A stretch of 40,272 nucleotides of DNA from Elusimicrobiota bacterium (GCA_031364865.1 JANLWZ010000246.1:1-40272), one strand, 5' to 3'; positions 20,409-21,058 are shown, counted from the first letter of the stretch. The notes: a model not told the origin generated them from the letters alone. Translations and numbers: made by a program.

Positions 20409-20427
20409 CTGCAAAGCGAGTGCCATG
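20409..20427 (-). promoter_or_regulatory. sigma-54-type -24/-12 promoter motif, leftward
   Basis: The minus strand reads CATGGCAC-TCGCT-TTGCAG, a perfect TGGCAC-N5-TTGC. The ATG at 20397 starts 14 nt after the -12 C. Confidence 0.6.
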
Positions 20428-20578
20428 CGCCCTAGCCTTGCCCGGATTGTGTGAAGCGTCGCGGCTTTTGACGAGAAGGCAAAAAGGCCAATCCGGATGC
20501 CGCTGTTAAGGTTTTGGGCAGTGTAGCGTTCTTAGTCAGGCGTAGCTAAGTTCATGATATCTTACATTGTCCCAGAAA

Positions 20579-20638
20579 TGTAGACACATCTTTTTTTTTA
20601 AGTAGTTGATTTTATTCATTGTAGACAAAATGTAGACA
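20579..20638 (-). repeat. iteron cluster A: three TGTAGACA cores (minus strand reads TGTCTACATTT)
   Basis: Cores at 20579-86, 20620-27 and 20631-38. They lie 154-213 bp upstream of the leftward -24/-12 motif. Confidence 0.8.
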
Positions 20639-20646
20639 AATTGAAA

Positions 20647-20662
20647 TTGAGTTAAGTCTATG
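20647..20662 (+). repeat. 16-bp perfect direct repeat TTGAGTTAAGTCTATG, copy 1
   Basis: Identical to 20863-20878. Flanks extend the similarity to about 25 bp. Confidence 0.85.
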
Positions 20663-20845
20663 AAATTATAGATTGTCCCAGAATTCGACCTAAAAATCGC
20701 TAAAACTTTATATATAACGCTTCGCTTCGCTTTTTTTGTTAGCTTTTGTGAATATTATAGGGGAAAACGCGTTTTAGTAGTCCGTATGGAGAGTATATAT
20801 ATGTAGTAAAAAGTATGTATATAGGAAAAGTTTTGCGAAAAGTCG

Positions 20846-20992
20846 TGTCTACATGTCTACATTTGAGTTAAGTCTATGGCATTATTTAGGAATGCCGGAA
20901 AGTGCTTTTGTCTACATTCGTGGGACATTTGTCTACATTTCGCTTAAGCCCTTGGCTTCCTTGGAGAATGCTGGAAAAAGTTCGTGTCTACA
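20846..20992 (+). repeat. iteron cluster B: five TGTCTACA cores (consensus TGTCTACATTT)
   Basis: Cores at 20846-53, 20854-61, 20909-16, 20930-37 and 20985-92. Orientation is opposite to cluster A. Confidence 0.8.
20863..20878 (+). repeat. 16-bp perfect direct repeat TTGAGTTAAGTCTATG, copy 2
   Basis: Identical to 20647-20662. Confidence 0.85.
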
Positions 20993-21042
20993 TTTGCCGG
21001 AGGCTTCAAATTCCCAGCCGGATGTAGGAAAGCAAAAGGCCC

Positions 21043-21058
21043 TGGCTTTTTTAGGGCA
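21043..21058 (+). promoter_or_regulatory. weak sigma-54-like motif, rightward (TGGCTT-TTTTA-GGGCA)
   Basis: The GG-N10-GC spacing is correct, but both the -24 and -12 elements are degenerate. Lies 51-197 bp downstream of iteron cluster B and about 210 bp upstream of the rhomboid ATG. Confidence 0.25.

Follow-up and report, generated by a model that had tools for sequence, protein, structure and literature searches.

A probable replication origin built on a recurrent 8-bp iteron, with a candidate SF3 helicase initiator, in an uncultured podovirus-like phage

P4 alpha, a superfamily 3 (SF3) primase-helicase related to D5 and VapE, uses a C-terminal winged helix to bind iterons of 8 bp (TGTTCACC), and its two iteron clusters, ori and crr, both bound by alpha, can lie kilobases apart and kilobases from the gene. 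The origins of staphylococcal pathogenicity islands (SaPIs) have 6-12 iterons just 3' of rep, with an AT-rich centre and at least two iterons per side in opposite orientation; the winged helix in the C-terminal domain of Rep recognises the iterons, and two Rep hexamers are probably self-loaded (PMC9371898). The CyRepA proteins (DUF3854-helicase) are experimentally established Rep proteins of cyanobacterial plasmids (PMC10079941). Here, we analyzed an array of the 8-mer TGTCTACA in a 40,272-bp contig recorded under Elusimicrobiota bacterium (GCA_031364865.1 JANLWZ010000246.1:1-40272), the whole of which is called the window below. Its source is an uncultured podovirus-like phage with an SU10-like structural module. 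We conclude that the region 20579-20992 is probably a replication origin of the SaPI-Rep/P4-alpha type, served by the SF3 helicase of the phage, and a probable origin and a candidate initiator are hence assigned to an uncultured phage lineage. This kind of origin is already known; what is unusual here is its position 6.4 kb from rep, the reuse of TGTCTACA across phyla, and the set of sigma-54-type promoters that accompanies it. The parts of the element are the following.

20579..20638, minus strand: left iteron arm, with exact TGTCTACA at 20579-20586, 20620-20627 and 20631-20638, the last two 11 bp apart
20639..20845, 207 bp: AT-rich core, putative DNA-unwinding region, with CGCTT three times and TATATATA-type tracts
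20846..20992, plus strand: right iteron arm, with five exact TGTCTACA, at 20846, 20854, 20909, 20930 and 20985
20544-20577 and 20650-20683, plus strand: secondary repeat modules of the form AG(T/C)TAAGT..ATG...TGTCCCAGAA (34-nt repeat 20544 / 20650)

The element occupies a 757-bp non-coding gap that extends from the ATG of a leftward operon (20397) to a rhomboid gene. An earlier note on this DNA, made from the sequence alone, had described eight iterons in two arms around an AT-rich stretch, and every copy is present where it had been placed. The eight exact copies (three minus-strand, five plus-strand) fall within 414 bp, the two arms being of opposite orientation and pointing away from the core; a stray ninth exact copy lies at 32409. 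The box is a TGT-N2-ACA pseudo-palindrome, and its nine occurrences in the whole window compare with 0.47 ± 0.66 expected, a count reached in none of 100 shuffles. The 11-mer TGTCTACATTT has five exact copies. In the right arm two iterons follow each other with no gap (the doublet TGTCTACATGTCTACA), and this arm falls within a pair of 72-nt direct repeats (20854-20925 / 20930-21001) with 71% identity.

The core (20639-20845) has a GC content of 31%, against 52.7% for the whole contig. When GC content was computed over 200-bp segments in steps of 10 bp, the 12 lowest values of the contig came from segments starting between 20521 and 20641, which cover the left arm and extend into the left part of the core. 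The CGCTT triplet (~20718-20733) and the GTATATATATG / GTATGTATATA elements reported there previously are both present. Additional repeats, AGTTAAGTCTATG and TGTCCCAGAA, occur in the region, some of them direct where the iterons are inverted. For instance, the first half of the secondary module has a third copy at 20863-20885 (23-nt repeat 20647 / 20863, 91%), and this copy is direct rather than inverted. The related half-site TGTCCCA, possibly a degenerate iteron, had been listed three times. All three exist, with the inverted copy at 20921-20927, but the first two had been placed one nucleotide off and really lie at 20568-20574 and 20674-20680. We found no DnaA box, allowing up to one mismatch, anywhere in 20-21 kb, and no Rep_3-type initiator among the scanned open reading frames (ORFs) of the window; the locus does not show the features of a DnaA-dependent iteron-plasmid origin of the RepA, pi or TrfA kind.

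The earlier note had left the iteron-binding protein without a name. The search is now narrowed to one candidate, encoded next to a primase.

12690..13970, minus strand: SF3 (VapE-like) helicase, candidate iteron-binding initiator, with Walker A GPQGTGKT
11739..12614, minus strand: DNA primase, a separate gene directly 3' of the helicase (PHROG 2597, 3.3e-13)

In Pfam the helicase matches VapE-like (1.8e-18), DUF5906 and Pox_D5, with a Pox_D5-type C-terminal region, and its best sequence match in the PDB is 7pds. Its AlphaFold2 model has a mean predicted confidence (pLDDT) of 81.6, and in residues 339-400 a strand precedes two helices and a hairpin of two strands, an arrangement that we take as a predicted C-terminal winged helix. 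When this model was searched with Foldseek, SaPI1 Rep1 (7PDS) took ranks 1-6 over the full length (E 1.6e-9, TM 0.54, 415 columns), at an identity of 13-15% in the alignment, followed by NrS-1, the ASFV primpol, SaPI5 PriRep, papillomavirus E1 and the large T antigen (LTag) of SV40. The primase gene is only 75 bp away, and a primase also stands beside the helicase in the relative L024 (L-numbers are labels of comparison loci and contigs). Among the window ORFs of at least 150 aa, the helicase is the sole Walker-A protein. Finally, when all window ORFs were compared with all ORFs of the array loci described below, only the helicase family recurred, at seven loci, with the array adjoining the helicase in each.

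The locus resembles the SaPIs in several ways. Both encode an SF3 helicase whose C-terminus has a winged helix (predicted in the window), a self-loading initiator in the SaPIs and a candidate one in the window, and the SaPI protein is the top structural match of the window helicase; both have a separate primase gene beside rep; and both have iterons in two opposed groups around an AT-rich centre. Four traits of the SaPI type are accordingly seen in the window, namely 6-12 iterons, an AT-rich centre, at least two opposed iterons per side, and an SF3 helicase with a predicted winged helix, and one is absent, the placement of ori immediately 3' of rep: the SaPI origin is directly 3' of rep, whereas the window array is 6.4 kb upstream. 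Moreover, SaPI iterons are 5-6 nt long and island-specific, whereas the window iteron is an 8-mer common across phyla, and SaPIs are satellite islands, whereas the window is a 40-kb phage in which no integrase was found. P4 differs from the window in that alpha fuses primase and helicase, which are separate genes here, in the sequence of its iterons, and in its need for two clusters where the window has one. More distantly, the SF3 double hexamers of SV40 LTag and papillomavirus E1 also load on inverted short repeats that flank an easily melted AT-rich segment. However, these are eukaryotic viruses, and their origin-binding domain lies N-terminal to the helicase and has another fold.

By analogy with these systems, the helicase would bind the iterons through its winged helix, one hexamer would assemble on each arm, and the AT-rich core would then melt. 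The primase (11739-12614) and a PolA-type polymerase (7024-8982) could then begin bidirectional synthesis. The sigma-54-type promoter that lies 154 bp to the left of the iterons would be a separate element driving the leftward operon, and its closeness to the origin would reflect the usual placement of origins at a point where transcription diverges.

We searched for the motif itself because no close relatives were available for direct alignment in the collections searched. GenBank phages gave none by DNA or protein search, and the lineage has no cultured relative there. A metagenome scan with the helicase and a genome scan with the portal gave no matches, and the sole other contig carrying a 59-aa neighbour gene is identical to the window. 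The portal relatives L021-L026 (54-61% identity) have only the structural module in common with the window; L024 has a helicase 80% identical to that of the window, on a 5.9-kb fragment that does not cover the iteron region. We ran a three-box pattern, TGTCTACA-N0-12-TGTCTACA-N35-65-TGTCTACA, on GTDB genomes and IMG/VR, and it matched at least 119 loci in the former and 69 in the latter. In IMG/VR, a composition-matched control 8-mer gave 9 loci against these 69, and 2 arrays with both orientations against 36. An earlier two-box pattern had already returned from IMG/VR non-coding, two-orientation arrays in unrelated phages. The first IMG/VR matches (L011-L019) had no protein family in common, among themselves or with the window, by BLAST and Pfam.

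Many of the matches are plain tandem repeats in one orientation. A distinct class resembles the window array in that its boxes are irregularly spaced, occur in both orientations and form back-to-back doublets, TGTCTACA[N0-1]TGTCTACA; a doublet architecture like that of the window's right arm is also found in L098 and L121. An apparent extended similarity of the window doublet to L120 and L121 (AGTTAA...TGGCATT) was discarded, as it disappeared under a control with masked core and shuffled flanks (z <= 0 for both). The large genes beside the arrays were analyzed with Pfam, which identified VapE-like proteins (L027, L036), a protein with DUF3854, D5_N and DUF5906 (L066), and DUF3987 proteins (L105, L098, L083); in L012, the product of the gene that precedes the array ends in a VapE-type C-terminus. 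The proteins of the Pfam-identified helicases then served as seeds for finding helicases at the array loci. Among the matches listed for GTDB, 24 of the 42 two-orientation arrays have an SF3 helicase, at a median of 60 bp from its 3' end and within 0-100 bp in 17 of the 24. In IMG/VR, 11 of the 36 have one in the surrounding sequence, and the median over the nine distances measured is 6 bp. The array usually starts 5-100 bp past the stop codon of the helicase. Taking both databases, an SF3 helicase accompanies 35 of 78 two-orientation arrays versus 8 of 108 one-orientation arrays among the matches listed (Fisher odds ratio 10, p = 3e-9).

Several matches in Microcoleus are whole contigs of 5.5-7.4 kb with 77-bp terminal overlaps and a coverage of 112-465x, compared with ~20-60x for other contigs of the same assemblies. 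They look like small circular multicopy plasmids. In two of the Microcoleus contigs, L036 and L105 (6.7-7.2 kb), the sole large gene is the helicase adjoining the array. L036 and L066, also from Microcoleus, carry CyRepA-type proteins (DUF3854 and VapE/D5) with the TGTCTACA array just after the gene. This likeness to CyRepA has its limits, since the origin was not mapped to such iterons in PMC10079941 and the window helicase has no DUF3854 domain. A variation on the theme is found in Microcoleus sp. B3-D7, where a 5.6-kb circular high-coverage contig (L081) has a 12-box TGTCTACA array and no helicase gene; L036, which has both helicase and array, comes from the same strain, and L081 may be a satellite replicon that uses a Rep protein in trans.

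As judged from sequence comparison, this survey shows one 8-bp box, TGTCTACA, apparently marking SF3 primase-helicase replicons as diverse as cyanobacterial plasmids, elements of Lactobacillales and Bifidobacterium, and phages. More speculatively, very different SF3 helicases, and perhaps integrases as well, might all read this 8-mer as one origin code common to several phyla. Our literature search found no paper linking the 8-mer to iterons, and nothing among the plasmids of PLSDB matched the window region or the rep-ori region of L027. If the relation holds, TGTCTACA could be used as a search key for the origins of this class of replicons, and for vector design.

The arrays had been proposed to be activator sites of two divergent sigma-54 promoters, with a replication origin as the alternative, and it is the alternative that the comparative evidence favours. 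The two motifs concerned are the following.

20410-20425, minus strand: sigma-54-type -24/-12 promoter TGGCACTCGCTTTGCA, a perfect TGGCAC-N5-TTGCA, which heads the leftward operon and appears separate from the adjacent origin
21043-21058, plus strand: rightward GG-N10-GC motif TGGCTTTTTTAGGGCA, not a credible sigma-54 promoter and outside the element

The leftward motif is indeed an exact match to the consensus. The window contains four perfect TGGCAC-N5-TTGCA, all of them intergenic and correctly oriented, against ~0.02 by chance (our own estimate, 80,544 positions / 4^11), and 23 matches with up to two mismatches, against 10 expected. Eight sigma-54-type motifs, six leftward and two rightward, three of them perfect, cluster at 24217-24504, in the stretch that separates the leftward early operon from the portal/structural operon. 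Tandem arrays of the motif also precede the portal operons of L021 (3322-3504, six to seven motifs) and L026 (1486-1571), and their presence in these portal relatives indicates that the promoter type is a trait of the lineage. From these motif matches, it is credible that the leftward promoter at 20410-20425 is of the sigma-54 type and belongs to a phage-wide and lineage-wide set. The rightward motif exists as a sequence but has no promoter signal: with a matrix made from the sigma-54 motifs of the relatives, it scores -1.9 and ranks 1022 of 80,502 positions, and the symmetric two-promoter picture therefore fails.

A less symmetric version would have the iterons as enhancer sites from which a bacterial enhancer-binding protein (bEBP) activates the promoter at 20410-20425 and, through DNA looping, perhaps also the cluster at 24.2-24.5 kb, the sites serving this role either alone or besides being an origin. 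The perfect consensus of the leftward promoter and the pseudo-palindromic box are in line with this idea, and so is the distance of the left arm, which at 154-213 bp on the upstream side of the promoter is typical of enhancers. Repeated TGT...ACA-type sites 100-200 bp upstream of a -24/-12 promoter are also what is seen with NtrC and NifA, and sigma-54 promoters need some activator. However, neither a bEBP family (Sigma54_activat) nor a GAFTGA loop in a real ORF was found among the window proteins, and the rightward promoter behind the symmetric model is noise. The earlier note had suggested a search for the motif in related phages. There is no TGTCTACA near the eight sigma-54 motifs at 24217-24504 nor near the sigma-54 arrays of L021 and L026, but arrays of the box do recur in unrelated replicons, where they are not tied to sigma-54 promoters: across 186 array loci (1.4 Mb, among the matches listed) we counted 26 sigma-54 motifs versus ~23 by chance, by our own estimate. 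Furthermore, many TGTCTACA arrays are found in Cyanobacteria and Bifidobacterium, groups that are not known to have rpoN, the gene of sigma-54. We therefore consider an enhancer function improbable, although a secondary role of this kind is conceivable because the geometry of the left arm fits.

As sigma-54 promoters need an activator and no bEBP was found in the phage, one may also ask if the origin doubles as an activator site, with the SF3 hexamers (AAA+-class) on TGTCTACA, or replication itself, remodelling the sigma-54 holoenzyme. This seems to us highly improbable; were it true, transcription would be coupled to replication, in a way reminiscent of late promoters served by sliding clamps (gp45 in T4, the beta-clamp in Mu). 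In any case, a sigma-54-type transcription programme for which no phage-encoded activator was found is the more surprising trait of this group of phages, and our literature search found no paper on a phage transcription programme built on sigma-54 promoters.

Some further observations concern these promoters. The -12 GC of the leftward motif predicts a transcription start at ~20400, ~3 nt before the ATG at 20397, so that either the leftward mRNA is leaderless or the true start codon is further downstream. The best match to the sigma-54 matrix in the window is TGGCACGCTTCTTGCG, at 35413-35434 (plus strand), inside the structural operon, of which it may be an internal promoter. A G-rich, G-quadruplex-like element, GGGGGGTGGGGGTGGGTGGG, is found just 3' of the rightward sigma-54 motifs in the window (24548-24567), in L021 (3527-3551) and in L026 (~1596-1617), and is conserved in these three phages even though their portals are only 54-60% identical. 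Finally, the contigs L022, L023 and L025 stop 490-830 nt 5' of the portal gene, where L021 and L026 carry their sigma-54 arrays, and these ends are probably assembly breaks on repeats rather than genome termini.

Several findings weigh against a replication origin at 20579-20992 that is served by the helicase. Instead of adjoining rep, the array stands at the head of the operon that contains the helicase gene, 6.4 kb upstream of that gene. The helicases beside the other arrays belong to different Pfam families, and their C-terminal regions have no similarity detectable by BLAST. When the C-terminus of the window family was compared with theirs at the profile level, the winged helix was in register, but the match was weak (pairwise E 0.0086). 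The flanks of the iterons are not homologous between loci. Since one 8-mer shared across such dissimilar helicases has no explanation, the true binder could be another factor. In the sequence around 25 of the 36 viral two-orientation arrays there is no recognisable helicase, and Pfam gave nothing informative on the ORFs beside ten viral arrays of this kind. Lastly, the box is found near integrases. In cyanobacterial elements, one-orientation TGTCTACA arrays lie ~450 bp from tyrosine-integrase genes whose products carry an arm-binding domain. In L148 (6046-6301) and L204 (1325-1580), two temperate relatives with tail genes that the window also has, a 48-nt tRNA-Met-like 3' fragment (the attP core) lies between the boxes, which adjoin an integrase gene and an XRE-type helix-turn-helix (HTH) gene. 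The helicase may thus not be the binder in every context.

These integrase contexts are the argument for seeing the boxes as sites of a recombination or architectural protein, such as arm-type sites of a tyrosine integrase or partition/centromere-like sites, instead of an origin. In the window, however, no integrase was found (phmmer, no hit at E <= 10) and no tRNA gene either, which makes an attachment-site role unlikely there; no tRNA fragment was noticed in the core on reading the sequence, although no search was aimed at one. No ParA or ParB was found among the scanned ORFs. Among the matches listed, the two-orientation arrays go with helicases in 35 of 78 cases and with integrases in 5 of 78. 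Besides, the elements L045, L115 and L137 have a helicase as well as an integrase. L115 and L137 pair their integrase-proximal array with an SF3 helicase, and in L115 a second array, adjacent to the helicase, makes the arrangement resemble ori and crr of P4. On balance, there is little to recommend this explanation for the window.

The boxes could also be operators of a small phage regulator that controls divergent sigma-70-type promoters in the core, the rhomboid promoter included. The region does hold three weak sigma-70-like hexamer pairs, against 1.1 expected, one of which (20641-20669, plus strand) has a TG extension; the rhomboid gene requires a promoter; and the early genes are chiefly small unannotated proteins. 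However, the genes nearby gave no match to an HTH or any other DNA-binding family, eight sites over 414 bp with a 207-bp spacer are an atypical geometry for operators, and it would be left unexplained why the arrays so often stand just 3' of helicase genes, so that we hold this explanation to be doubtful at best. A reading as transposon ends (Tn7/Mu-like TGT termini) was rejected, as 207 bp separate the arms, no transposase turned up, and at other loci the arrays are compact and stand beside helicase genes.

The position of the element can also be compared with that of a portal relative. At the equivalent genome position, L021 (2460-3810) has a 1.35-kb non-coding region with a different origin-like module, made up of six direct iterons of 21 bp (AGCCTCGATTARGGGCG), a stretch rich in AT, two copies of the DnaA-box-like GTGGATAAG and a ATTCCTCAATGAT repeat in five copies. 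Because L021 has this different module there, the slot beside the leftward early operon looks like an origin slot.

The leftward operon, of ~17 kb, begins at 20397 and has the replication genes within it. The other features of the phage mentioned here are the following.

2958-4388: terminase
7024-8982: PolA-type polymerase, in the leftward replication block
13967-14722: exonuclease, in the leftward replication block
17.5-20.4 kb: lipoprotein, collagen-repeat and peptidase gene block
21266-21874: rhomboid protease gene, with start codon at 21266
25000-26802: portal, in the SU10-type structural module
27712-28932: capsid, in the SU10-type structural module, which also has an adaptor

An 88-aa ORF at 20853-21119, overlapping the right arm, is probably not a gene, because the TGTCTACA boxes within it are not all in one reading frame and its product matches no known family. 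Immediately 5' of the rhomboid start codon, at 21170-21248, we noted an inverted repeat of 16 nt (CCAAGGCAGGGGTTGC / GCAACCCCTGCTCTGG) together with a hairpin resembling a terminator, and an attenuator or a small structured RNA could be encoded here; Rfam gave no family match within 19.5-25.5 kb. In the moron-like block of lipoprotein and metallopeptidase genes, 18859-19509 (minus strand) encodes, by ~18 tandem 9-bp units, a lipoprotein with collagen-triple-helix repeats. Finally, the gene at 10049-10396 (minus strand) encodes a protein with the N-terminal domain of dATP/dGTP diphosphohydrolases (PF18909, E 2.5e-28) and adjoins a gene for a HAD/PNKP-like phosphatase. The pair is also kept in L024, and it hints at nucleotide-pool editing or base modification.

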